Below, piece by piece: positions 19,171 to 32,206 of a DNA stretch of 64,000 nt. The notes under the pieces were generated by a model that did not search any database, was not told the origin of the DNA, and was given only the letters and a program-made list of their open reading frames with translations. Origin of the DNA: Bacteriovoracaceae bacterium (GTDB taxonomy: Bacteria; Bdellovibrionota; Bacteriovoracia; Bacteriovoracales; Bacteriovoracaceae). The position numbers were made by a program, and so were the translations under genes. The DNA lies in contig JBLWTJ010000001.1 in assembly GCA_048270185.1 (NCBI GenBank), positions 544,001-608,000 on the forward strand. The letters run 5' to 3'. The first letter of the stretch is position 1. Every line of letters starts with the position of its first letter.

Positions 19171-19187
19171 GTGCACGCAACCTTTTC
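19170..19187 (+). repeat. REP-like repeat, copy 1
   Basis: ggtgcacgcaaccttttc lies between the cinA stop and the RAYT stop and matches copies at 19878 and 20066. Confidence 0.8.
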
Positions 19188-19809
19188 AAGATTCTAATAC
19201 TTTACGTTCATGTGAAGATATTCCATTAGGTATATTGAAGTAACTTCTTTTTAAGGATCTCTTCATTATATTTGAGGCATTAGAACAAAATTGTTTTTCA
19301 TAAAAACTGACTTCATCTGTATATCTGAAATGTGGTTTAAAATTAATTAAACGCCCCTCAAAATTTGTAAAATGCAAAGAACTGTATGGATATGAAATAC
19401 AACGATCAACAATCCCTGCTCTCAATGGGTTCTGATAAATATATCGATAAACATTTTGTAGGTAATTATTATCCTGAACAATAGACCACTTATAACGATT
19501 ACTAAATTTATGATTGATAACTTTTGAATATTTAGCAATTGATTTAGAGAGTCGATGATTAAATAACATCATAAATTTATCAATATTTTCATCAGGAGTG
19601 GTAATAAGAAGATGATAATGATTATTCATTAGAACAAAACAATTAACTTCAACATCAACTCTCTCTCGCGCGTAGATTAAAGCTTGCTTAGCTATATCCC
19701 AAACATGATACAAAGGTAACGGAAATGGAACCTTGTTATTTGTTCTTGATGTAACATGATATGGATACTTACTTTGTCTTATTAATTTAGGTCTAGGCAT
19801 GTTTAGCAT
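19186..19809 (-). mobile_element. REP-associated tyrosine (Y1 HUH) transposase, RAYT-like (likely start MPRPK at 19800)
   Basis: YHVTSRTNNK, FVLMNNHYHLL (HUH), YIYQNP (catalytic Tyr) and YPYSS; visibly more AT-rich than the flanking genes. Confidence 0.88.
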
Positions 19810-19877
19810 ATCTACTAATTTATAAAATAAAGCGATGATAAAAATACAATTGGAATATACATTTCATTTTTGAAATC

Positions 19878-20087
19878 GGTACGCGCAACCTTTTCGTGAA
19901 ATAGATAACTTATGTAATATAGATTCTTTTCGTATCAAGAGAAATAGACAATGTAGAGCATAGTATTAATTGCGCTAATCCTAGAGAGTGATTTGTATTA
20001 AGCAGAATAATAGTTAAGTGAAGGAATTGTTATTTGTAAATAAGAATCAGTATAACTGACTTGAATCACGAAAAGGTTGCGTGCACC
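19878..20087. repeat. REPIN-like inverted pair of REPs upstream of the RAYT
   Basis: ggtacgcgcaaccttttcgtga (19878-19899) and tcacgaaaaggttgcgtgcacc (20066-20087) are near-perfect reverse complements around an AT-rich spacer. Confidence 0.8.
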
Positions 20088-20094
20088 AAAAACC

Positions 20095-20124
20095 AAAAAA
20101 AGAGGCCATACAATGTATGGCCCC
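20095..20124 (-). terminator. Intrinsic terminator of the motB-like/motA-like/cNMP operon
   Basis: ggccatac-aat-gtatggcc hairpin preceded by an A-run on +, which is a U-run on the minus strand. Confidence 0.7.
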
Positions 20125-20146
20125 TTACCTCATCTCAGCTTATAAC

Positions 20147-20608
20147 TTAGGCAGCATTTTTATTCTCAATTTCCATGATAAGGTTTGAGATTCGTTTACC
20201 TGCGCCTTGTAAACGTCCGGCCAGTAATCTTGATAGATTGAGAATCAAGAGTGAAAATATTCGAGGATTGGTTTTATACAGGCCGAATATGTCGGAGTAG
20301 TTCATGACTAAGACGTCGGTAAAGTTATCTGATTGTACTGTCCCATAGCGGACATTTTCTTTTAAAAGAACCATTTCACCAAAGAGGTCTCCCTTTTTGA
20401 TTTTGGCTATTTCTTTATTGTCGCGATTAAAAACACGAGCGGTACCGTTTAGGATTAGATAAAGCTCTTCACCAATATCACCGTGTTTGAAAACAAAATC
20501 ATCTGGTTTAAGTGTGAGAACCTTACAGTGCTCACAGATTGTCATAATCTCGTTATCATATAAATCAAAGAATAACGGACAACCTTTAACGATTGATAAT
20601 ACACTCAT
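20147..20608 (-). CDS. Stand-alone cyclic nucleotide-binding domain protein
   Basis: VFKHGDIGEELYLILNG and phosphate-binding cassette FGEMVLLKENVRYGTV; no HTH domain. Confidence 0.9.
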   Translation of the reverse strand: MSVLSIVKGCPLFFDLYDNEIMTICEHCKVLTLKPDDFVFKHGDIGEELYLILNGTARVFNRDNKEIAKIKKGDLFGEMVLLKENVRYGTVQSDNFTDVLVMNYSDIFGLYKTNPRIFSLLILNLSRLLAGRLQGAGKRISNLIMEIENKNAA

Positions 20609-20623
20609 CTTGACCGCCCCTTA

Positions 20624-21595
20624 TTAAGCTATTTTCTTTTCATCATGCTTAGCTGGTGACTGATTCAAAGTTTTCTCTTCTTTCAAGTAGCGTTCGATAC
20701 TTTGAAGAACCTTAAGTACACCTTGCATAGCAGTTTGATCTTTCGAGTTACCTTTTTGAAGGTGATACCAAAGATTCTGCATTGAAGTCTCAACCTTTTT
20801 AAAGATCTTAAAACGCTTTTCAGGTAATGGGAAAAGTGTGTTTAGAAACGTTAAAATCAGTGAGAAGAAAATCCCCGCAATCGATGTCTTCATCGAGAAG
20901 GCAACGTTAATAACGAAACGAGTAAGGTTATCTGATGACTTTTCAATATTATTGAAGTCGATGGCCGCAATCTCAGGAAGGGCCATGGCAATACCAATGA
21001 ACGTACCGAAAACCCCAAAAACGATGAAAAGGTTCGGGAGAATATCGATCATACGAGATGCACCATCAATTGGAATATGCCCATAAAGCTTCGTCCAATT
21101 TCTATCATCACTCATAATACGATCAGTAAGTTCCGTATAATTTGGAGGAACAGTTGATTTAAAAACCGAACTCTCTCCATGGATTGAAGCGATAAGACCG
21201 TGTTTTGAACCAATATATTGATTTAGTGAAATACTTGATCCTCCACCATCATCAATTTCGCGATCAATTTCACGCTGGGCCATGGCCTCTTTACCATCGT
21301 AGTAACGATTTTGAATATTTGAATTGTTGCTGAATCGAAGAGCATTGTCAGGTAGGGCGGCATTCACTCGCCCTAGAAGATTTGACATATACGAATCAAT
21401 ATCATCAATAGGAATATTTTTTTGCTTATCATCATCGATGGCAGCGTCAAGCTCTCTCGTAAATCGCGAGTAATAAGCATCATCATCTTTACTGTGACGA
21501 TAAGCTAAGTAGCGAAAGACAAGGGCACAAAGCAAAAGCCCCATCATGAATTCGATAAGATAAGTACCGAAAAAACTTAATACTAACTCAATCAT
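20624..21595 (-). CDS. MotA/TolQ/ExbB/ZorA-like ion-channel subunit
   Basis: N-terminal TM, then the pair LPNLFIVFGVFGTFIGI and FSMKTSIAGIFFSLIL with the conserved Thr residues of stator A subunits. Confidence 0.78.
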   Translation of the reverse strand: MIELVLSFFGTYLIEFMMGLLLCALVFRYLAYRHSKDDDAYYSRFTRELDAAIDDDKQKNIPIDDIDSYMSNLLGRVNAALPDNALRFSNNSNIQNRYYDGKEAMAQREIDREIDDGGGSSISLNQYIGSKHGLIASIHGESSVFKSTVPPNYTELTDRIMSDDRNWTKLYGHIPIDGASRMIDILPNLFIVFGVFGTFIGIAMALPEIAAIDFNNIEKSSDNLTRFVINVAFSMKTSIAGIFFSLILTFLNTLFPLPEKRFKIFKKVETSMQNLWYHLQKGNSKDQTAMQGVLKVLQSIERYLKEEKTLNQSPAKHDEKKIA

Positions 21596-21638
21596 ACGTA
21601 CCTCTTTGTTAGGTTACCAATCCTCGACTATTGGTCAA

Positions 21639-24600
21639 CTATTTAAGTTCAGGAGAAAGTTGTAATAATCTCTCCATCGCTTTTGGATCATCTTTTAATG
21701 TAAAGCTCAGCTCAACACGTTGTGATTGTGAACAACTAAACTCACCACACTTCATGTCTTCATTTGCAAGTGGAATTGCAAAACTAGCTGGTTTTCTTTC
21801 TTCAACAATAAACCCTTTTGGTTCAATTAATTCAGCTGCAATTGACTCACGTTCACGTTCAATTACTGTCTCAAGAGGAATCGGTCTTGAGAAACCATAA
21901 CCAATTGATTTCGTCACATTACGCATATAGAACTTATATGGGTAGTTCATGCCATCACTATAGATATAGTTAGAGATAGCAAGAGCTCTTCGTGAAGAAA
22001 GGTTTAAGTTGTAGTTATACGAGTAAGCTTCTGCCATCATTGGATCAAGGGCCTTACCACCAAAGAGTGGAGACGCGTGTCCTTCAACATTGAAGCTATC
22101 TAGTTGCTCTCTTACTGTATCATCAGCAAATAGAACTTCTGAGTACAGTGGAATAAGAGACTTAAGCTTCGTTTTTGCATGCTTACTCAGTCTTGAAGAA
22201 CCTGTTTCAAATAGTAAGTTCTTATCCATTAGAAGTGTTACGTTACCTGTTTTAGGATCAACCGCTGCATCAATATTATTATTTCTAAATTTATCAGCAA
22301 GGTTTCTCGCAATATTTGCACGTAAGTTCTTCTTCTGATCTTCTACTTTTTTAGCAATCTTCTTAACTTGCTTCATGAAATCTTTCTTATCGTTAACTTC
22401 AGCAAGACATGAATTAAGTTTCTTATTAGCACCATCAAGTCCATTACCAAGTTCAGTAACCTTCTTATTCAAGGCGCTTGAACCAGTTTCACAGGCATTT
22501 AGGTCCTCACCAAGTGACGCAATCTTACGTCCAAGACTTCCGTTTTCATCATTCTTATTAGCAAGAGCATTTTGAAGATCACTAACTTCTTTTCCAAGAC
22601 CTGCAACCTTTCCATTTAGCCCATTAACTTGATCTTTTAAGCCTTTATTTTCTTTTCCAAGACCAGCAAGTTCACCCTTAGCTTTTCCCAGAGCATCTTT
22701 AAGTCCACCGATCTCTTTCCCCATACCGGCAAGTTTACCTTGGGCCTTACCTAGGGCTTCTTTTAGGCCACCGTTCTCTTTTCCAAGACCAGCAAGTTCA
22801 CCCTTAGCTTTTCCCAGAGCATCTTTAAGTCCACCGATCTCTTTACCCATACCGGCAAGTTTACCTTGGGCCTTACCTAGAGCTTCTTTTAGGCCACCGT
22901 TCTCTTTTCCAAGACCAGCAAGCTCACCCTTAGCTTTTCCAAGAGCATCTTTAAGTCCACCGATCTCTTTACCCATACCAGCAAGTTTTCCCTTTGCTTG
23001 TCCAAGTGCTTCTTTTAGGCCACCGTTCTCTTTTCCAAGACCAGCAAGCTCACCCTTAGCTTTTCCAAGAGCATCTTTAAGTCCACCGATCTCTTTACCC
23101 ATACCAGCAAGTTTTCCCTTTGCTTGTCCAAGTGCTTCTTTTAGGCCACCGTTCTCTTTTCCAAGACCAGCAAGCTCACCCTTAGCTTTTCCAAGAGCAT
23201 CTTTAAGTCCACCGATCTCTTTACCCATACCGGCCATCTTACCTTTAGCTTGTCCGAGTGCTTCTTTTAGGCCACCGATTTCCTTACCCATTCCGGCAAG
23301 TTTTCCTTTTGCCTGTCCAAGTGCTTCTTTTAGGCCACCGTTTTCTTTTCCAAGTCCTGCAAGTTCACCCTTAGCTTTTCCAAGAGCATCTTTAAGTCCA
23401 CCGATTTCCTTACCCATACCGGCCATCTTACCTTTAGCTTGTCCAAGTGCTTCTTTAAGTCCACCGATTTCTTTACCCATACCGGCCATTTTGCCTTTTG
23501 CCTGACCAAGGGCCTTCTTTAGGCCACCGATTTCTTCGCCCATACCTTTCATCTTGCCTTGGGCCTGTCCTAGAGCTTTTTTAAGCCCACCATTTTCTTC
23601 AGACATACCTGCAAGTTTTCCTTGGGCCTGACCAAGAGCTTTCTTAAGCCCACCGATCTGTTCACCCATTCCTTTCATCTTACCTTTAGCTTCACCAAGT
23701 GCCTTTTTAAGGCCACCATTTTCTTCAGACATACCTGCAAGTTTTCCTTGAGCTTGCCCAAGTGCTTTCTTAAGTCCGCCGTTTTCTTCTGACATACCTT
23801 TAAGTTTACCTTCGGCCTGCCCTAGAGCATCCTTAAGGCCACCATTTTGTGCCATAAGAGACTTCTTATCACCTTCAAGTTTTCCAACCATCGCCTTTAA
23901 ACGATCAACCTCACCAGAAAGACCCTTATTCTTTGCGTCTCCCTGTGCAAGCTTTGATTGAAGATTTTTGATGTCACCTTTTAAACCTTGATTATTTTGC
24001 TGAGAACGCGCAAGGTTTGATTTTAAACCTTTAACGTCATCATTAAGTCCTGCGATTTTGCCATCTCTTGCAGCTACATCTGCATTAAGCTTTTTAATTT
24101 CGGAATCTTTTTGAGCAGTAAGAGAATCCATTGCTTGTGCATGCTTGCCTTTTAAATCCTTAATTTGATTATCGTAAGCAAGTTTTTGATCAGACTTACT
24201 CTTCTCATATTGTTTAGTAAGATCTGTCAGCTCTCTCTTGTGATCGGCATTTAATTTTGCAATCTGTGACTGAGCATCTTTTTTAACACCAGCAAGTTGC
24301 TTATCTTTAGATTCAAGTTCTGATTGAAACTTTTTATTTAAGTCAGCAATTTTTGATTCATAGCCTGCTTTTTGTTTCGCTTCAGATTTCTTATGCATTT
24401 TTTCTAGATCAGTGATCTTCTTTGCATGATCTGAATTAAGCTTTGCAATTGTCTCTTGTGATTTTTTAATTGTTCCAGCAAGTTGCGCATCTTTAGTATC
24501 TAGTTCCGCTTGAAACTTTTTATTTAGGTTAGCGATCTTAGATTCATAACCCATCTTGGTATCTTGTTGTTGTTTTTGATGAGATTTCGTCAAATCGTTA

Positions 24601-26936
24601 ACTTTTTTAGCGTGATCTGAGTTAAGTTTTGCAATAGTTTCTTGAGACTTCTTAATTGTACCGGCAAGTTGTTTTTCTTTTGTATCAAGCTCTGACTGGT
24701 ACTTCTTATTAAGATTTGCAATTTGAGTTTCATAACCCATTTTCGTATCTTGTTCTTTTTTCTCAAATGACTTCGTTAAATCAGCAACTTGTTTAGCGTG
24801 ATCAGAGTTCATTTTAGCAATTGTTTCTTGTGACTTCTTCTTCTGACCAGCTAATTGTTGGTCCTTAGAAGTTAGCTCTGATTGAAATTTCTTATTTAGA
24901 TTAGCAATCTGAGTCTCATAACCCATCTTTGTATCTTGTTGTTTCTTTTCATAACTCTTTGTAATAGAGTCAACTTTCTTTGCATGATCAGAGTTAAGTT
25001 TTGCAATTGTGTCTTTTGACTTCTTAATTTCACCATCTAATTGCTGCTGCTTAGCAGTTAATTCGGACTGGTGCTTCTTACTTAAATTTGCAATCTGAGT
25101 CTCATGGCCCATTTGGGTATCACGCTGCTTCTTCTCATAAGACTTTGTTAAATCGTTAACTTTCTTTGCATGATCAGTATTAAGTCGAGCTATTGTCTCT
25201 TGAGACTCTTTCTTTTGACCAGCTAATTGCTTTTCTTTAACATCGAGTTCACCCTGATACTTCTTATTAAGATTAGCGATTTGTGATTCATAACCCATTT
25301 TTGTATTTTGCTGTTGTTTCTCGTAAGTCTTTGTTAAGTCAGCAACTTTCTTTTGGTGATCTGAATTAAGTCGAGCGATTGTTTCTTGAGAATCCTTCTT
25401 TTGACCTGCAAGTTGCTTTTCTTTTGTATCAAGTTCTGATTGAAACTTTTTATTCATATCAGCGACTTGTTTTTCAAAACCAGCTTTTTGTTGTTGCTTT
25501 TGTTGCTCATAGGTCTTAGTTAAGTCAGCAACTTTATTTTGATGATCAGCATTTAAGGTCTTAATCTCATGTTCTTTTGTTGAAATAATATTTGCATACT
25601 TCTTATTTAGGTTTTCAACCTTAAGAGTATGGTCTTGATTAAGCTTTTGCACTTCTTGTTCTTGAGCTTTCTTTTGCTCAACAATTTCATTTTCTAATTT
25701 TTCTTGTGCAATAATACGCCCCTGAATCTCTCGATTGGCCTTAGCGATTGCTTCTTCATTCTTTCTCTTAACCTGCTGAAGCTCCTGAATTTTCTTTGTA
25801 TCTTCTTGTACTTTAGCCAGAGTATTAGCAAGCTTTGAGCGTACTTTTACAACTTCATTATTGATTAGATTATTTTGAGCAACTTGCTCCTTAACCTTTT
25901 CTTGTTCAACTTTAAGTTTTGATTCTAATGATTTCTTAGTTACTTCAATTTGCTTGATATCTTGAGTTTGCTTAGAAACTTGAGTTTTTAACTCTTGAAG
26001 TTTCTTTTCTTGTCTTGCTTTTACGTCATTAACATTAGAAAGAAGGTTCTCAAGATCCTTCTTCTCTTTTTCCACTTCTTTCTTCTTCTTATCTAGTTCT
26101 CCGACACGAGAAAATAAAATATTTTCCTTATCTTTAGCTTTAGCAAGCATCGAGTCACGATCTTTAATTGCTTTTTCAAGATCAATTAATGATTTCTCTT
26201 TATGCTCTAGCACAACTTTGATTTGCTTCTTCTCTTCTTCTTTCTTTTTAATTTCTTCTTTTGTTTCTTTTAGACTCTCAGAAAGCTTTTCATTTTCTTT
26301 TGACTTTTGTTTCATTTCTTTCTGAATTTGCTGAATTTTCTTTTGAAGCTCTTTTTCTTCTTTTTTCTGACGCTCCATCATTCTTGATAACTTATCAAGC
26401 TGGGCCTCTTTTGAACGAAGGTCATCGTCATTTTTACGAATCTCTTCAAGACGTTTCTTAAGCTCTTCAGCTTTCTCATTGATTTCTTTCTTTAACTGAG
26501 TATTTTCACGTGAGATTTTTTTAGATTTGTATTTTTCTTTATCAAGTTGTTGACCAACTTTTTCGACAATAGACTCTTTTTTGATTTGGTCCTTGACCAT
26601 ATCCTGCATTACTTTCTTATTTTGCTCTAATTTTTCGACAAATTTTGAAAGTTCGACCATCTTCTGGTTAATAACGTTCTTATAATCAGTGACCTCATTG
26701 ATTGATTGCTCAATCTTATTCTTGGCCTTCATCTCTTTTATTTTCTGTTCTTTAGAGACCATCCCTTGCATTTGTTCTTCGTGTTTCTTCTTTTCTTGCG
26801 CTTGCTGCAAAGACTTCACCCCGACCTTAATCATGGCGAAAACGAACATAACAAGGAATACAACGGCAACGGTTGTAAACATATCTGAGTATGAACTCCA
26901 GATTGACCCGTCGTCTTTTCTTTCTTCTCTTTTCAT
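21639..26936 (-). CDS. Giant MotB/ZorB-like protein: TM anchor, long coiled coil, C-terminal OmpA-like domain
   Basis: IWSSYSDMFTTVAVVFLVMFV (MotB-type TM with Asp); C-terminal LLFETGSSRL, VEGHAS, NLNLSSRRA and QRVE. Confidence 0.85.
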   Translation of the reverse strand: MKREERKDDGSIWSSYSDMFTTVAVVFLVMFVFAMIKVGVKSLQQAQEKKKHEEQMQGMVSKEQKIKEMKAKNKIEQSINEVTDYKNVINQKMVELSKFVEKLEQNKKVMQDMVKDQIKKESIVEKVGQQLDKEKYKSKKISRENTQLKKEINEKAEELKKRLEEIRKNDDDLRSKEAQLDKLSRMMERQKKEEKELQKKIQQIQKEMKQKSKENEKLSESLKETKEEIKKKEEEKKQIKVVLEHKEKSLIDLEKAIKDRDSMLAKAKDKENILFSRVGELDKKKKEVEKEKKDLENLLSNVNDVKARQEKKLQELKTQVSKQTQDIKQIEVTKKSLESKLKVEQEKVKEQVAQNNLINNEVVKVRSKLANTLAKVQEDTKKIQELQQVKRKNEEAIAKANREIQGRIIAQEKLENEIVEQKKAQEQEVQKLNQDHTLKVENLNKKYANIISTKEHEIKTLNADHQNKVADLTKTYEQQKQQQKAGFEKQVADMNKKFQSELDTKEKQLAGQKKDSQETIARLNSDHQKKVADLTKTYEKQQQNTKMGYESQIANLNKKYQGELDVKEKQLAGQKKESQETIARLNTDHAKKVNDLTKSYEKKQRDTQMGHETQIANLSKKHQSELTAKQQQLDGEIKKSKDTIAKLNSDHAKKVDSITKSYEKKQQDTKMGYETQIANLNKKFQSELTSKDQQLAGQKKKSQETIAKMNSDHAKQVADLTKSFEKKEQDTKMGYETQIANLNKKYQSELDTKEKQLAGTIKKSQETIAKLNSDHAKKVNDLTKSHQKQQQDTKMGYESKIANLNKKFQAELDTKDAQLAGTIKKSQETIAKLNSDHAKKITDLEKMHKKSEAKQKAGYESKIADLNKKFQSELESKDKQLAGVKKDAQSQIAKLNADHKRELTDLTKQYEKSKSDQKLAYDNQIKDLKGKHAQAMDSLTAQKDSEIKKLNADVAARDGKIAGLNDDVKGLKSNLARSQQNNQGLKGDIKNLQSKLAQGDAKNKGLSGEVDRLKAMVGKLEGDKKSLMAQNGGLKDALGQAEGKLKGMSEENGGLKKALGQAQGKLAGMSEENGGLKKALGEAKGKMKGMGEQIGGLKKALGQAQGKLAGMSEENGGLKKALGQAQGKMKGMGEEIGGLKKALGQAKGKMAGMGKEIGGLKEALGQAKGKMAGMGKEIGGLKDALGKAKGELAGLGKENGGLKEALGQAKGKLAGMGKEIGGLKEALGQAKGKMAGMGKEIGGLKDALGKAKGELAGLGKENGGLKEALGQAKGKLAGMGKEIGGLKDALGKAKGELAGLGKENGGLKEALGQAKGKLAGMGKEIGGLKDALGKAKGELAGLGKENGGLKEALGKAQGKLAGMGKEIGGLKDALGKAKGELAGLGKENGGLKEALGKAQGKLAGMGKEIGGLKDALGKAKGELAGLGKENKGLKDQVNGLNGKVAGLGKEVSDLQNALANKNDENGSLGRKIASLGEDLNACETGSSALNKKVTELGNGLDGANKKLNSCLAEVNDKKDFMKQVKKIAKKVEDQKKNLRANIARNLADKFRNNNIDAAVDPKTGNVTLLMDKNLLFETGSSRLSKHAKTKLKSLIPLYSEVLFADDTVREQLDSFNVEGHASPLFGGKALDPMMAEAYSYNYNLNLSSRRALAISNYIYSDGMNYPYKFYMRNVTKSIGYGFSRPIPLETVIERERESIAAELIEPKGFIVEERKPASFAIPLANEDMKCGEFSCSQSQRVELSFTLKDDPKAMERLLQLSPELK
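22644..23840 (-). repeat. Coding tandem repeat, 19 x 63 bp (21 aa; GLKxALGxAKGKxAGxGKExG)
   Basis: Counted from the translation; later units alternate as near-identical 126-bp dimers at DNA level. Confidence 0.92.
24140..25570 (-). repeat. Coding tandem repeat, about 7.5 x 186 bp (62 aa; ETIAKLNSDHAKKV...QLAG..KKSQ)
   Basis: Seen in the translation; the 186-bp period holds between equivalent motifs near 24425 and 24611. Ends are approximate. Confidence 0.88.
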
Positions 26937-27060
26937 AATCCTACCCTCGAACAGTTGATAGGATAGCGATTTATAGAACTTATTAAATACTAGTTATGTT
27001 ATGGGCCTAATATTTAGAAGATTCTTCAATTATTTCATGGTGTTAATAAAGAATTCCTGT

Positions 27061-27100
27061 AATTTCATGCTATTTTCAACTTTTTTGTTGGCATGAAATT
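27061..27100. promoter_or_regulatory. Inverted repeat in the divergent promoter region
   Basis: aatttcatgc (27061-70) pairs with gcatgaaatt (27091-100), with an inner caac/gttg pair. Confidence 0.45.
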
Positions 27101-27304
27101 TGTGACAAGTTTTAAAGGCATCACAATATAATATGTTGAAGCGCCAATTAAATGAGTCCTCATACCTGACATGATCATTCCACAATACCCTTCAACATAC
27201 CGTTATCTCGTAAATCCTAGAATTAACTACGGCATTTTTTAACCCTAAATTATATTAATCTTAAGTAGTTACGTTATTGCGACGATAAATACTTGGGATA
27301 CTTA

Positions 27305-30300
27305 ATGAAGATTTTTACACGCAAGTTACAATTTATATTTATATTATCGCTACTAGTAGCGCTTGCCTCTTCGTGTGTGCCCCAAGCGGCCAATAATCGT
27401 AGTGCGGCCAGTGATGAAAGTGACAGTGTCGAAACTGAAATTAATGATCCAACTTTTTCAAACGCTAAAGGCTTTATCCAATACGCAGGCAACGCCTACA
27501 CTTCACTATTTGAAATCGATAATTACTTTGATGATAATATTAGTATTCGCGGCCGTGGTATTCACAACTACGTAAAAGAAAACTTATCAAAGACATATTG
27601 TGCAATTACAAATTTCTCTGTCATAAATAGTGGAACCCCTCTTATAGCAGTAGGATTCCCTCAATATACACTAGACTCTTCTACAAATACTCGTGAGTAC
27701 TTTATTCGTTTCACGTACCGTAGTATTGATGCGGCCATTACTGAAAATTACTGTAATAATTCGGCCGTTTTAAGTTTTATGAGTGGTAAGGGACTTAATA
27801 CAGGTAATCGAAAGTATGATATTGATGATATTTGTCCTACATGTTCAAATCAAACAACATCTTCAAACGCATTATTACTGACAACAAGTTCAGGTGATGA
27901 TCTAACGACAGCACTTGGGGCAACTCTTACAGTAAAGTTATACTTCACATACACGAGTACAACAGATCCTAGTAATAACCTTTGTTCTGCTGACTCACAA
28001 TGTGCTGTCAATGGCGAAGACTTCTGTTGTCTTAATGGTCAATGTGTAAAGGATCTCTCTGAAAAAACTGATTCAATTCCAAACTCGATTTTAACAGAGG
28101 TCGCAGCTAATCCATCTAGTATTTACAACTATCCTAATTACTATAATATTTGTACTCAAGGGACTATTCCTGATGAAGGAGATAGTGATGAATACACTCC
28201 AGATGAGGAAGCGGCCATTCGTTTTAAACGCCTTAAGCAACTCTACCAATGTACAACACCATTTGATGGTGAACGTGGAATTTGTACAACAATTTATGAG
28301 GGTGCTAGGACTGACTTAGAATCAAATTATGAAACAAATATTGATGATACAAATTTTGCTTCTATCTATAAAGGGTCATACCCTCTTGCTAACTCAATAC
28401 ATGAGATACGCTATCAGAATGCAGTAATCTACAAGAATGGAGCCTCTGTTGTTCCAGGTCAAGTTACAGTCTCAGGGATAAATGATAATCTAACTGATAC
28501 AACTAAACTTGCTATCACAACACCTTATGTAGCAACAAATAAGTACAAGAACTTAGAAATTGATGCCTACACTGATGTATCTTGTACACGAATCAATAGT
28601 TTCCAGGCCCAGTGTTACAAGGTTTACAAACAAGGACAAAATGAAGGTAAGGCCACTGACCACTTCCCAGGAACACAGAGGTTTGAACTTCCATTTTACG
28701 CAAATATTAATTATAAAGTTGTTGTACTAGTTGATGATGTTGCAAGAACACAAAATACTTCTTGGACACTATCGGCAGGAGCAAGCAACGAGGTTGTCTT
28801 CAATAGCGATCATATTGTTCAAGATTCACAAGAAGTTAAGATCAACTTCTATGTCGATCTAACAACTTATCCAACTATATTAACTTCCAAAGAAGCTGCA
28901 CAACAGGAGATTGCAACTTATTGTAAGTGTAGTCTTAACCAATGTGAACTGGAAGAAGTTTTAAATACAAGTGATACAGTTGTTGATTATCAATGTCGTC
29001 TGATTCCAACTCAAAGTGAGCCACCAAAGCAACAACAACTCTACTTATCAGCAAAGACAGCACCACAACGCTACTTTGATAGTAATGGAGTTTCAAAGAA
29101 TGGACTTAGCCTATCTGATGTAATTCTAGAGCCAAATCTCGCTCAAGAAGGAACAGCATTCTCTTATATAGGTAATGATAAATCTAAGCCAAATAATGTG
29201 AACGACTATATTGGATTTAACGAAATCTACGGAAGCTTTGACTTAACAAGTAATTCAGCAAAGCCTGCCAAAGAAATTGAAGTAAAAGAAGGAACAACTT
29301 ATGATATTTTTGTATCAGGTGGTAACTACTCAAGTTGTTCAGGCTGTGGGAATGACTACTACTCTTCTTCTCTTAAAGTTTATCCAAATGAATTCGTTAA
29401 TGGTGCAGCAGGATATCAACCAGATCTAACAACTTCTAGTCGAACTAAAACTCAAAAATATCGCTCAGATGATTTTTCTTTTGGCCGTGCATGTTTTGTT
29501 CCTGCAACAATGGTTGCTTGGACTCACCAAGAATATGAAGACCAGCAAGAACAACGCCTTAATCGAATGAAGGCCCAGCACTTCTTAGTGGCAAACGGGT
29601 ACGATAGAGATTGGTATGGTTTTAACTATGGCTCAGTCATAGGATCATTCGACGGTGTGAAATGGTTTGCCGTTGGAACAAAGAGACGCATCAAAGCAAC
29701 AAGTAATAAATTATTCCTAGCAATAAATGCTAAATTATCTGACCAGACGATTGAAAATAGCTACACAGTTCTTGTTCAGGATTCAATTATTAACGGAAGT
29801 GCCGTTCTTCCAACAACAGACTACGAAACAGACGGGGCCTCTTGTCAGCAAGTACATGCCTGTAACACAGATAGTGAATGTGTTTCATCACTTGGTTGGG
29901 ACTATATGTGTGAGAATGTATCAACACTGTCATCGCCTTATCCAAACTTTGATGTTAATGGTAATGAAATACCGCAAGAGTCAGATATAGATCGAATTCT
30001 TTCTCTAAGTGGATCTTTTTCAGGTGGAGTAAAACGTTGTGTTTACCGTGGCCGTGGAGCTGCCTGTTTACCAGATTATAATAATGTCACATCAACATCG
30101 ACATCATACACTGCTGTCGGGACAAAGAGACTACATGGTTGTTCATTTAACAATCACTGTGAACCACTTGAAAGCAGTAATAATGCGAAATTTAACAATA
30201 AGATTTCAAGAAATGCTACAAGTCTAATTTTTCAAAATGGACAAGTCGATAATGAAGAAGAACTTGTCTCGACAGTAGGACTTCTTGCTCCAATTATCGG

Positions 30301-32206
30301 ACGTCCTCAGAAGTACATTGGTGATGAAGTACCAAATAACAATGCTAAGAGAAACTTAATATTAAATAATGTTGAAGGTATATGTATCCCAGGTCGTGAC
30401 GCTAATCTTGAAGACGTAGTGATCTCTATGGATCAAGGCTCCGACTTAACACCTGACTTTATTGGAAATATGGGAAATACTGTTTCCGATCTTCAGAACT
30501 CAACAAATATCAATACATTTGTCAGCTGCCCTACTTTTGATACATCAGGAGATTATGCAGCATTTAATCGCCTACAAAACGTAAGTGCAATGTCGAGTGA
30601 AATACAATTACTTTCACGCTCACAAAACTTGTCGACTTATTTTCTAGAAATATTCTCAGGCTTAACTAATGATGAGTTAACAAGAGATATTAATGACACA
30701 ACAAATACCGCTATTGAACAACTTGCCCTACCTGTTAATGCTTGTCTTAGAGCACCAGGTTCAACTTGTTTCACCGACCTCGATTGTTCGGCATCAAAGT
30801 TCATTACAGATAATACGAAAGGTGTTGATATTGAAGATTTACTTGTAGCAACAAGTAAGTATGAATTGTCATTCTGGCAGACTGAGCTTGTTTGTGCCCA
30901 ACCTGCACGTGTTGGTGATAGTGACTACGATATCAGAAATAACCGCTGTTGTTCAGAAATTGGTAACACATTTAAAGTACCAACTCTTGACTACAATACA
31001 GGTGTTCCAATTACAACTGACTCTGAAATTATCTCTACTGATTCAGTAGATCTTGAAAAAGTTCCTGGAGCAGAAATAGGCGCCAAAACAGGAACTCGCT
31101 TCTCAGGTACAGTATTAACAGAGTATGAGCGAGAAAATGGTGTTGATAACATAAAGACAATGAGAATAGCTGGTGTTGATAGTGTTACCGATGCTTCTTC
31201 AACTGTAGATGCACAATATAAATTACTTTCAACTTATGGACGAAAAATGTGCTGTAGTGAAAACTGGGTACGAAGCTTTCACAAAGAAGATAACGGTGGT
31301 GGCCATGAATGGGGACCAAATAAAATGCAGGCCCACGGACTTACATCACTAGAAGACTTTAAGTGCTATAACTATGCTGATCAAGATGCAACTAACTGTG
31401 CGGCCAATTCTGCACAAGACCCAGATGAGTGTTCACTAGTTGATATTCCAGATCCTATCGGACTTGATATCACAAAATGGCTTAGCTACTACGAACTGAC
31501 AGGTATTCCAAATATTGTCATTAGCGATCATCAAATGGGAATAACTGATGGCGATGTTCCTCTATGTTCAAAGCCAATCTATCGCTCAACTGGAGCAACA
31601 CCAGAGTATGTCAACCCTGATGGATACACTCTCCAGAATAAGAATGATTTTGATGGGACTGCAGCTGCATCATTTAAAACAGTTTTTGAAAGCGATGAAT
31701 TTGCATGTTGTATGCCTTCTGGAACACAGATGGCAGCTGGAGATGATCCAAATATGTGTTGTACAGGATACATCAATCCTCAAAATAATAAGTGCCAACT
31801 TAAAAACTTTTCAAATGTTACGGCCTATACAAATCGTTATGTTTCAAGTGAACTACAAAACCTACCAGATTCTGAATTTGAGCAGAAAACTGGAATGATG
31901 AATGATCGTGAGAAGCTAGCGGTTATTGCTTGTGAAAAGCAGATGTGTGCAGATGGTTTTGTTGCATTCGGTTTAGTACATGGACAATATGGGCTACCTG
32001 AAGAAACAATGGCCGATGCAGATGCAGCAGGTGTTGGTAACTTTAGCCGCTTTATTCAAAACACAGACAATGACAATGAACTAGGCCGAGTTGACTACTT
32101 CTTTGATGGCCTAAAATGGAATGCAAATGTATATTGTATTCCTGCTAATGTTGCCTCTGCCCTGCAAAGCTCAACACCAGCAATTCAAGTTCTTAACTGT
32201 AATTAA
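27305..32206 (+). CDS. Giant cysteine-rich lipoprotein of unknown function
   Basis: The ATG at 27305 gives MKIFTRK, a hydrophobic stretch and lipobox LASS-C; dozens of Cys in C-x-x-D-x-x-C and CC modules. Confidence 0.85.
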   Translation: MKIFTRKLQFIFILSLLVALASSCVPQAANNRSAASDESDSVETEINDPTFSNAKGFIQYAGNAYTSLFEIDNYFDDNISIRGRGIHNYVKENLSKTYCAITNFSVINSGTPLIAVGFPQYTLDSSTNTREYFIRFTYRSIDAAITENYCNNSAVLSFMSGKGLNTGNRKYDIDDICPTCSNQTTSSNALLLTTSSGDDLTTALGATLTVKLYFTYTSTTDPSNNLCSADSQCAVNGEDFCCLNGQCVKDLSEKTDSIPNSILTEVAANPSSIYNYPNYYNICTQGTIPDEGDSDEYTPDEEAAIRFKRLKQLYQCTTPFDGERGICTTIYEGARTDLESNYETNIDDTNFASIYKGSYPLANSIHEIRYQNAVIYKNGASVVPGQVTVSGINDNLTDTTKLAITTPYVATNKYKNLEIDAYTDVSCTRINSFQAQCYKVYKQGQNEGKATDHFPGTQRFELPFYANINYKVVVLVDDVARTQNTSWTLSAGASNEVVFNSDHIVQDSQEVKINFYVDLTTYPTILTSKEAAQQEIATYCKCSLNQCELEEVLNTSDTVVDYQCRLIPTQSEPPKQQQLYLSAKTAPQRYFDSNGVSKNGLSLSDVILEPNLAQEGTAFSYIGNDKSKPNNVNDYIGFNEIYGSFDLTSNSAKPAKEIEVKEGTTYDIFVSGGNYSSCSGCGNDYYSSSLKVYPNEFVNGAAGYQPDLTTSSRTKTQKYRSDDFSFGRACFVPATMVAWTHQEYEDQQEQRLNRMKAQHFLVANGYDRDWYGFNYGSVIGSFDGVKWFAVGTKRRIKATSNKLFLAINAKLSDQTIENSYTVLVQDSIINGSAVLPTTDYETDGASCQQVHACNTDSECVSSLGWDYMCENVSTLSSPYPNFDVNGNEIPQESDIDRILSLSGSFSGGVKRCVYRGRGAACLPDYNNVTSTSTSYTAVGTKRLHGCSFNNHCEPLESSNNAKFNNKISRNATSLIFQNGQVDNEEELVSTVGLLAPIIGRPQKYIGDEVPNNNAKRNLILNNVEGICIPGRDANLEDVVISMDQGSDLTPDFIGNMGNTVSDLQNSTNINTFVSCPTFDTSGDYAAFNRLQNVSAMSSEIQLLSRSQNLSTYFLEIFSGLTNDELTRDINDTTNTAIEQLALPVNACLRAPGSTCFTDLDCSASKFITDNTKGVDIEDLLVATSKYELSFWQTELVCAQPARVGDSDYDIRNNRCCSEIGNTFKVPTLDYNTGVPITTDSEIISTDSVDLEKVPGAEIGAKTGTRFSGTVLTEYERENGVDNIKTMRIAGVDSVTDASSTVDAQYKLLSTYGRKMCCSENWVRSFHKEDNGGGHEWGPNKMQAHGLTSLEDFKCYNYADQDATNCAANSAQDPDECSLVDIPDPIGLDITKWLSYYELTGIPNIVISDHQMGITDGDVPLCSKPIYRSTGATPEYVNPDGYTLQNKNDFDGTAAASFKTVFESDEFACCMPSGTQMAAGDDPNMCCTGYINPQNNKCQLKNFSNVTAYTNRYVSSELQNLPDSEFEQKTGMMNDREKLAVIACEKQMCADGFVAFGLVHGQYGLPEETMADADAAGVGNFSRFIQNTDNDNELGRVDYFFDGLKWNANVYCIPANVASALQSSTPAIQVLNCN

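Follow-up and report, generated by a model that had tools for sequence, protein, structure and literature searches.

What kind of machine is encoded where a channel-like gene pair, one partner of which is drawn out into an exceptionally long rod, stands next to a gene for a small cyclic-nucleotide (cNMP)-binding protein? This question is raised by three consecutive minus-strand genes at positions 20147 to 26936 of a 64,000-nucleotide (nt) stretch of DNA (hereafter the window; contig JBLWTJ010000001.1, positions 544,001 to 608,000, of assembly GCA_048270185.1) from a Bacteriovoracaceae bacterium of the Bdellovibrionota. The genes follow each other in the order B-A-cNMP. The B gene (21639..26936, minus strand, 1765 amino acids (aa)) encodes a predicted ion-channel anchor, a giant periplasmic rod and a peptidoglycan-binding end, the A gene (20624..21595, minus strand, 323 aa) a predicted channel subunit of the ZorA/ExbB/TolQ type with three transmembrane (TM) segments, and the third gene (20147..20608, minus strand, 153 aa) a stand-alone cNMP-binding domain protein (Pfam PF00027, E 8.5e-15). 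B and A are separated by 43 nt and A and the cNMP gene by 15 nt, and the trio is closed by an intrinsic-terminator-like hairpin (20100..20126, minus strand; stem of 12 pairs, six of them GC, and then TTTTTGGTTT) that ends in a T run and is the sole minus-strand terminator-like site within 19700-27400. With slightly better than even confidence, we read the trio as an undescribed, housekeeping and vertically inherited ZorAB-related 5:2 motor that couples a distant site on the cell wall to the inner membrane, with the cNMP partner on the A ring. A previous interpretation made without database searches (the sequence-only reading) had already described three closely spaced genes with a single terminator, a B subunit with a MotB/ZorB-type TM segment, a long coiled coil and an OmpA-like end, a MotA/ZorA-like A subunit and a stand-alone cNMP-binding protein. 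The coordinates and lengths in our list of open reading frames (ORFs), the gaps and the terminator agree with that layout, and the three protein assignments are borne out by the matches reported below.

The B protein begins with MKREERKDDGSIWSSYSDMF, where a short cytoplasmic N-terminus containing the motif WSSYSD is followed by a single TM helix predicted by hydropathy at residues 22-40 (residues 1-40 at 26817..26936, minus strand; codon of Asp18 at 26883-26885). As judged from translation and hydropathy, B is arranged like MotB and ZorB, with Asp18 as the channel Asp, and has the single N-terminal TM helix and conserved acidic residue of the B subunits of 5:2 motors. Of 59 complete B homologues 58 retain this Asp, and the start call of the remaining one is truncated. 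The match of the Pfam MotB_plug model to this region was weak (E 0.076). At the opposite end, residues ~1553-1765 (21642..22280, minus strand) are predicted to form a ZorB/OmpA-type peptidoglycan-binding domain with GHAS, NLSxxRA and CxxxxC motifs. The C-terminus matched the PADLOC model ZorB1 at E 3.4e-30, which places the domain in the ZorB type, and a profile of this end built from 54 homologues found the type II ZorB of S. kujiense as its best match in the PDB (8vvi_A, 4.3e-13), followed by MotB (3.8e-4), E. coli ZorB (8.4e-4) and PomB (3e-3). An AlphaFold2 (AF2) model of residues 1440-1765 with a predicted local distance difference test score (pLDDT) of 85.8 shows a long helix (residues 1441-1552 as one helix) and then an OmpA-like domain. 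The top four Foldseek hits of this model were all ZorB chains, with values of 1.7e-9 (8vvn_B), 5.5e-9 (8vvi) and up to 2.1e-7, and Pal, YfiB, MotB, PomB and MotS ranked below them. Among the homologues the GHAS and NLSxxRA motifs are conserved and the CxxxxC pair is invariant, and GHAS aligned to GHTS of 8vvi ZorB. According to the available part of PMC11890865, the His and Ser at that motif are required for peptidoglycan binding in type II ZorB, and we infer from the alignment that the His and Ser of GHAS are their equivalents in B. Judging from the invariant CxxxxC pair and from the B-type topology expected by homology, the rod and the wall-binding domain would be periplasmic. There is no sign of outer-membrane export and both would lie in the predator's own periplasm, and the idea in the sequence-only reading that the rod might tether the peptidoglycan of prey finds no support. 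A further candidate assignment of B, to the NCBIfam family PRK09039 (peptidoglycan-binding protein), was rejected, since B scored 26 bits against a cut-off of 388 and is not a member.

The A protein has three TM segments and ends with a short cytoplasmic C-terminus ~70 aa after TM3; the consensus of its family is ~300 aa long. PADLOC ZorA models matched A down to E 1.9e-9 over residues 181-283 (34.8 bits), and the NCBIfam model antiphage_ZorA_2 matched with E 3.7e-10 and 39.4 bits (cut-off 100), with other ZorA models scoring lower. With a profile of the A family, ZorA chains were the only PDB matches at E < 0.01, and no sequence-level PDB match to ExbB or TolQ was obtained at E <= 10. The best Foldseek matches of the AF2 model of A (pLDDT 76) were ZorA, TolQ and ExbB, with a probability of 1.00 and E values from 3e-3 upwards. 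In VIA, the top 23 rows were all ZorA, ExbB or TolQ with Z 10-11.8, aligned over 195-236 residues in 22 of these rows and over 99 residues in the top row, while PomA reached only Z 7.1-7.4. Along the predicted ion path, G197-T198-F199 of TM2 and S238 of TM3 do not vary in the family, and at least 90% of its members retain T237. In the ZorAB complex the ZorB Asp packs against a Ser/Thr ring of ZorA, as stated in the accessible portion of PMC11890865. By its profile matches and its predicted fold, A is a channel subunit of the ZorA/ExbB/TolQ fold that has the channel helices of 5:2 motors and lacks the ZorA tail.

Between the two ends of B lies a proline-free, predicted alpha-helical rod (residues 41-1500; 22437..26816, minus strand) that makes up 83% of the protein, contains no Pro in 1460 aa and is rich in Lys (19.6%), Leu, Gly, Glu, Ala and Gln. 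The rise of a coiled coil is ~0.1485 nm per residue, and the 1,454-1,460 rod residues would therefore span ~216 nm if they form one continuous coiled coil. The sequence-only reading had likewise estimated about 200 nm, far wider than a periplasm. Hydrophobic residues recur with a period of 3.5 residues at 111-330 (window z 6-10 against shuffles) and very strongly at 1011-1500 (power 21.7; window z 7-19 against shuffles). Two arrays of tandem repeats are embedded in the rod. The first consists of eight 62-aa repeats at residues ~460-955 (24072..25559, minus strand) with a DH motif found seven times at 62-residue spacing, and Tandem Repeats Finder (TRF) reported a 186-nt unit in 5.5 copies at 24427-25454. 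Its periodicity is 3.65 residues (62/17, hendecad-like) with a power of 7.07, whereas shuffled sequences reached at most 0.91 +/- 0.30, and it should be considered that the repeats force the peaks of this region onto harmonics of 62 and that the harmonic chosen is the helical one. The second array consists of ~19-20 Gly-rich repeats of 21 aa, or three heptads, at residues ~1040-1438 (22623..23819, minus strand), delimited by TRF and by a heptad table. TRF described it as a 63-nt unit in 18.9 copies with a higher-order unit of 126 nt in 9 copies (85-88% matches) at 22651-23843.

The heptads of the second array give an indication of how the rod might be built. Residues 1040-1431 comprise 56 heptads in a single unbroken register, with one core position occupied by Leu, Ala or Met in 100% and the other by Leu, Ile or Met in 83% and by Asn in 9 of 56, and with Lys and Glu dominating the two positions that flank the core. 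Core Asn residues together with Lys/Glu flanks are typical of parallel, in-register dimeric coiled coils, and the pattern therefore fits the B2 unit of a 5:2 motor. Furthermore, the rod indels among five intact orthologues measure 7, 7, 7 and 105 residues, each divisible by seven, and this points to selection for a coiled coil without interruptions. The rod of B is probably parallel, dimeric and heptad-phased, and kept in register across species. The 21-aa repeats contain 27% Gly at outward-facing positions, which is unusual for a coiled coil, and this segment may be soft or force-sensitive. Matches of B to Pfam DUF2470 (E 1.4e-13, with 0 stretches passing), SMC, Rad50, JetC and CENP-F were regarded as composition and coiled-coil artefacts of the repeats.

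The third protein is a bare cNMP_binding domain (54.9 bits against a Pfam cut-off of 27.5) without an effector domain. Its phosphate-binding cassette consists of FGE at residues 76-78 and R87; G77 is invariant among 54 orthologues and E78 and R87 are each kept in at least 90%. The protein is by these features a PF00027 member with the cassette in place, and ligand binding is predicted. In total the genome has ten cNMP-binding domains, and it also encodes a class III nucleotidyl cyclase. After the barrel comes a helix (FSLLxLNLxRLLAxRLK) of unusually high conservation, in which N124 and R132 never vary and which represents a candidate docking surface. Predictions of a complex between A and the cNMP protein from their family alignments scored 0.22 and 0.19, with the mark at 0.32. 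The C-termini of A (20624-20635) and of the cNMP protein (20147-20158) share a short tail with the consensus KKAA/KKAS, and the final residue is Ala, Gly or Ser in 58 of 59 A proteins and 49 of 62 cNMP proteins. This tail could be a shared degron or docking tag.

Comparison with related genomes revealed that the trio is a conserved and vertically inherited module of the Bdellovibrionota, in which the cNMP partner defines a sub-clade. We searched 41 related genomes, including 12 others of the genus and 24 of the family, and found A in 12 of 12 genus genomes, five of which also have conserved flanks, and in 16 of 24 family genomes. More distant members keep the B-A-cNMP order with B proteins of 614-926 aa and share the trio alone, with different flanks. 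A survey with one genome per species yielded 293 loci with A relatives; the following counts are from 80 kept loci, which were divided by A similarity alone into 65 close loci (tblastn E <= 4e-30) and 15 distant ones (E >= 2e-26). A cNMP-domain gene lies directly beside A in 64 of the 65 close loci, and in the 65th the contig ends inside A. It is located downstream on the same strand in 60 of these 64, downstream in convergent orientation in three and upstream in divergent orientation in one, and genes of the trio commonly overlap by 4 or 1 bases or lie only a few bases apart. None of the 15 distant loci has the cNMP gene beside A. In nine of them (L098, L100, L103-L105, L108-L111) A is followed by the gene for a long coiled-coil protein with an N-terminal forkhead-associated (FHA) domain, which measures 770-1,440 aa or is truncated by a contig end. 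Such a protein is also encoded at L023, L025 and L026; complete examples range from 737 to 1,440 aa, and two of four tested have a TM segment near the C-terminus. In the phylum, an A relative at E <= 1e-30 was present in 116 of 301 genomes with a bimodal score distribution, and the clade with the cNMP partner (E <= 1e-97) was counted in some two dozen genomes, most of which belong to the same family as the window. When 1.84 billion representatives were searched exhaustively with a profile, 182 clusters reached E <= 1e-10. The sequence-only reading would have been undermined if A did not model as a MotA-family pentamer, if the TM Asp or the gene trio were not conserved, or if the locus matched a system already characterised, and the modelled fold of the A subunit, the conservation of Asp and trio and the literature speak in its favour. 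Specifically, literature searches, with subscription journals and supplements outside their scope, found no published description of the family.

The same comparison puts the size of B into perspective. Where a cNMP gene lies next to it, B ranges from 504 to 1,758 aa (48 complete proteins, median ~765), and the linkers of these proteins measure 215-1,454 aa (median 486), equivalent to 32-216 nm, with 0.21 Pro per 100 residues. The sequence-only reading had presented the giant B as a special feature. This is true of its 1765-aa size, which is extreme, while a long rod as such is a trait of the family. The giant size of B in the window is a lineage-specific extreme that goes back to the recent expansion of two tandem-repeat arrays (8 x 62 aa and ~20 x 21 aa). 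An intact giant B is present in four other species of the genus (1780, 1758, 1758 and 1653 aa), and in a fifth B is split within the repeats into 1304 and 534 aa. Including this B, split ORFs were noted at L032 (genome G008), L033/L014 (G010), L072 and L096, among them another B in two pieces and, at L096, an A in three pieces, and several assemblies end inside B. These splits and contig breaks suggest that assembly or reading frame went wrong in the repeats, or that the genes are truly decaying.

How does the trio relate to the motors described so far, and could one of their functions explain it? The best sequence and fold matches of both subunits are ZorA and ZorB (type II of S. kujiense, PDB 8VVI; type I, 8VVN and 8QYD). 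The trio resembles ZorAB in its three-TM A subunit and in a B subunit that carries a TM Asp and an OmpA-like wall-binding domain of the dimer type, and type II ZorB also has the GH-x-S motif seen in B. The trio might therefore be a new Zorya-like type of anti-phage defence, where a ZorAB-like core senses envelope damage and the cNMP protein relays the signal to an effector elsewhere. cNMP-binding domains do occur in Pycsar effectors, and PADLOC Pycsar/TIR models matched the third protein at 1e-8 to 1e-10, but these matches reflect only the shared domain and the protein carries no effector domain. Further points speak against defence, and we consider it an improbable explanation. Unlike ZorA, the A subunit of the window has no long cytoplasmic tail. 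In E. coli, where this tail is ~70 nm long, assembly of the ZorAB motor is lost upon its deletion and the tail is required for signalling, according to the part of PMC11946911 that was available. The long helical element is instead found on B and would be periplasmic, the gene order is B-A, and a cNMP-binding protein takes the place of ZorC/D/E. No ZorC/ZorD, ZorE, ZorF/G or other defence genes, and no flagellar or Tol genes, were found near the trio among 12 neighbouring proteins compared with PADLOC and 17 compared with Pfam, as the sequence-only reading had noted for flagellar, Tol and Zorya effector genes. The curated ZorA cut-offs were widely missed (39 bits against 100 for NCBIfam), and presence in all 12 other genus genomes, at a conserved site between housekeeping genes, together with A relatives in 116 of 301 phylum genomes, is core-like and unlike a defence island. 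Moreover, contig C21 of the same assembly (L112:273-5977) encodes a canonical type I Zorya in the order A-B-C-D, with a ZorA of 688 aa (E 2.9e-246, 817 bits), a ZorB of 251 aa, a ZorC of 480 aa and a ZorD cut by the contig end, although the membership of this 6-kb contig in the genome is not certain. The window A is 22% identical to this ZorA over 76 aa, and the B end is ~20% identical to this ZorB. Because it has no tail, no effectors, sub-threshold scores and vertical inheritance, and because the assembly contains a separate ZorABCD, the trio is not a Zorya system. Of the 'inverted Zorya' proposed from the sequence alone, the layout with the rod on B and the order B-A stands, and membership in Zorya does not, given the tail, the effectors and the scores.

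The layout of B, with an N-terminal TM helix and Asp, a linker and an OmpA-like domain, is also that of MotB in MotA/MotB (and PomAB, MotPS), and by analogy the stoichiometry is presumably A5B2 as well. The trio could in this case be a motility motor, either a divergent flagellar stator or a force generator for gliding or surface movement, whose leash lets the wall-anchored unit travel or reach a distant machine. Predatory Bdellovibrio-like bacteria both swim and glide, and the cNMP partner resembles YcgR, a PilZ-type second-messenger-binding protein that acts on MotA. It likewise resembles FlgX, which acts on stator units as far as the available part of PMC11725899 describes it. Like these proteins, the cNMP protein would be a small soluble second-messenger binder dedicated to a 5:2 motor, presumably on the cytoplasmic face of the A ring; unlike in YcgR, the ligand domain is of the cNMP-binding (CAP/PKA) type and not PilZ, and binding to A is putative. 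We nevertheless assign motility a low probability. MotA and PomA have four TM segments, and MotA has a FliG-contacting loop, whereas the A subunit of the window has three TM segments and a predicted ExbB/TolQ/ZorA fold, to which it is closer than to PomA by the Z scores given above, and is thus not of the flagellar stator type. The linker of MotB is a few tens of residues long and far shorter than the 215-1,454 aa found here, and a flexible tether of 32-216 nm cannot hold a stator against a rotor. No gliding genes were found beside the trio among the 17 proteins compared with Pfam, and six other MotA_ExbB-family loci above the Pfam cut-off in the genome can fill the Mot, Tol, Exb and Agl roles. 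As for ExbB-ExbD and TolQ-TolR, the A fold aligns with theirs over ~200-220 residues (Z 10-11) with the same three-TM topology, but ExbD and TolR lack the coiled-coil rod and OmpA-type domain of B, and the trio has no TonB or TolA partner. Finally, B might be a structural filament or tether of the periplasm, that is, a strut or scaffold between wall and membrane in which the channel part is a mere anchor and no motor exists. The dominance of the rod within B fits this explanation, as does its length, which varies freely by repeat expansion (B of 504-1780 aa) as in structural coiled-coil proteins, and B has sub-threshold Pfam matches to crescentin and intermediate-filament rods. However, the family hardly varies across the phylum in the channel Asp of B or in the polar TM residues of A, and a separate A subunit and a cNMP partner are strictly co-inherited, none of which a passive anchor would need, and we regard a purely structural role as unlikely.

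We favour the reading of the trio as a ZorAB-related motor that links a distant wall site with the inner membrane, and it can be outlined as follows. By homology, five A subunits with three TM segments each would surround the TM helices of a B dimer, and ions passing via Asp18 of B would turn the A ring relative to B. In the periplasm B would continue as a parallel two-stranded coiled coil of ~1,460 residues and end in the ZorB-type wall-binding domain. Because rods of 32-216 nm exceed the width of the periplasm in every complete member, the rod would lie lengthwise in the periplasm, and the channel would thereby be anchored to the wall at a point tens to hundreds of nm away. The most likely role would be long-range mechanical coupling or sensing between wall and inner membrane, in which strain on the rod might open or load the motor, by analogy with proposals that MotB and ZorB are activated via plug and peptidoglycan-binding domain. 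The motor would deliver its output at the cytoplasmic face of its A ring, where the cNMP protein most likely docks and sets or reads the activity of the motor according to cAMP or cGMP, similar to YcgR on MotA. In the sister clade the FHA/coiled-coil protein might act in its place. Our confidence in any specific cellular role is much lower than that in the motor as such.

Several observations weigh against this reading. The assembly of A5B2 and its rotation are deduced from homology only, and nothing found ties the module to any cellular process. The Pfam models MotA_ExbB, MotB_plug and OmpA stay below their cut-offs on the proteins of the window (for A, PF01618 with 14 bits against 22.9). The fold score of A (Z ~11) lies within the range that helical bundles reach by chance, and for this reason the case for the A fold rests on the family-specific ranking and on the sequence matches. 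The helicity of the 21-aa repeats with their 27% Gly is a prediction from sequence. In the cNMP protein of the window the residue after the pocket Arg is Tyr (R-Y-G), in place of the consensus R-T-A and of the usual Thr or Ser. The cNMP gene lies on the opposite strand in four loci, and co-transcription is therefore not universal. A long compliant rod would also be a poor anchor for torque, which is uneasy with a classical stator role. In another possibility, to which we give only a small chance, cytoplasmic partners hold the A ring and ion flow turns the B dimer and twists the rod, whose far end is fixed in the wall, as a periplasmic torsion spring or winch. Force would then be stored or applied along the envelope of a predator squeezing into its prey, with the Gly-rich, marginally stable heptad repeats as the compliant segment and cAMP or cGMP as the switch via the binding protein. 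If true, it would represent the first 5:2 motor with an output on the periplasmic B side over hundreds of nm.

Characterised 5:2 motors, namely flagellar stators, the Ton and Tol systems, gliding and type IX secretion motors and Zorya, all deliver work or signal into the cytoplasm or near the channel. If channel and wall anchor are separated by a rod tens to hundreds of nm long, this would imply a so far undescribed transmission of force or signal along the envelope. The family spans a phylum of predatory bacteria, and the dedicated cNMP sensor, the channel Asp and the rod that changes in heptad steps provide handles on its function. The results also show that ZorAB-like cores occur outside phage defence, which matters for automatic annotation of defence systems.

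The genes around the trio are housekeeping genes, encoding FabA/FabG-like proteins, an ABC-F ATPase, a FAD-dependent protein and CinA, and further an S41 peptidase, a peroxiredoxin and a glutamine synthetase III. Contigs from one RNA-library run (X4) matched 20128-20611, which is the cNMP gene (1 mismatch), parts of A, and 21289-21713 (0 mismatches), which spans the start of A and the stop of B; positions 20612-20760 and all above 21713 were uncovered, and the run says nothing on transcription there. Since DNA may be the source of such contigs, they give a weak hint of expression and are no proof of one joint transcript. Divergent from B, a gene at 27293-32206 (plus strand) encodes a Cys-rich protein of 1637 aa with a lipoprotein-like signal (…LVALASSC) and with no match in Pfam or PADLOC. 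It adjoins B in the closest relative (G002) and not in more distant loci (L018-L021), and a functional link to the trio, with this protein as a giant SiiE-like substrate, was rejected for that reason. Just downstream of the terminator lies a gene resembling RAYT (REP-associated tyrosine transposase; 19186-19809, minus strand), which scored 70.8 bits with NCBIfam against a cut-off of 80 and 1.7e-7 with Pfam Y1_Tnp and has no counterpart in the syntenic region of G002. The GC content rises to 0.43 at 22-24 kb from ~0.37, and horizontal transfer was rejected as its cause because the Gly/Ala-rich repeats lie at just this place and synteny of the flanks is kept in the genus. Near-identical proteins bear the name Halobacteriovorax, a marine predator within the Bdellovibrionota. 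DNA near-identical to 20100-22400 was found in public metagenome runs from seawater, plastic surfaces and sediment, and half of the words sampled from this interval were present in a run filed as a compost-metagenome RNA library.

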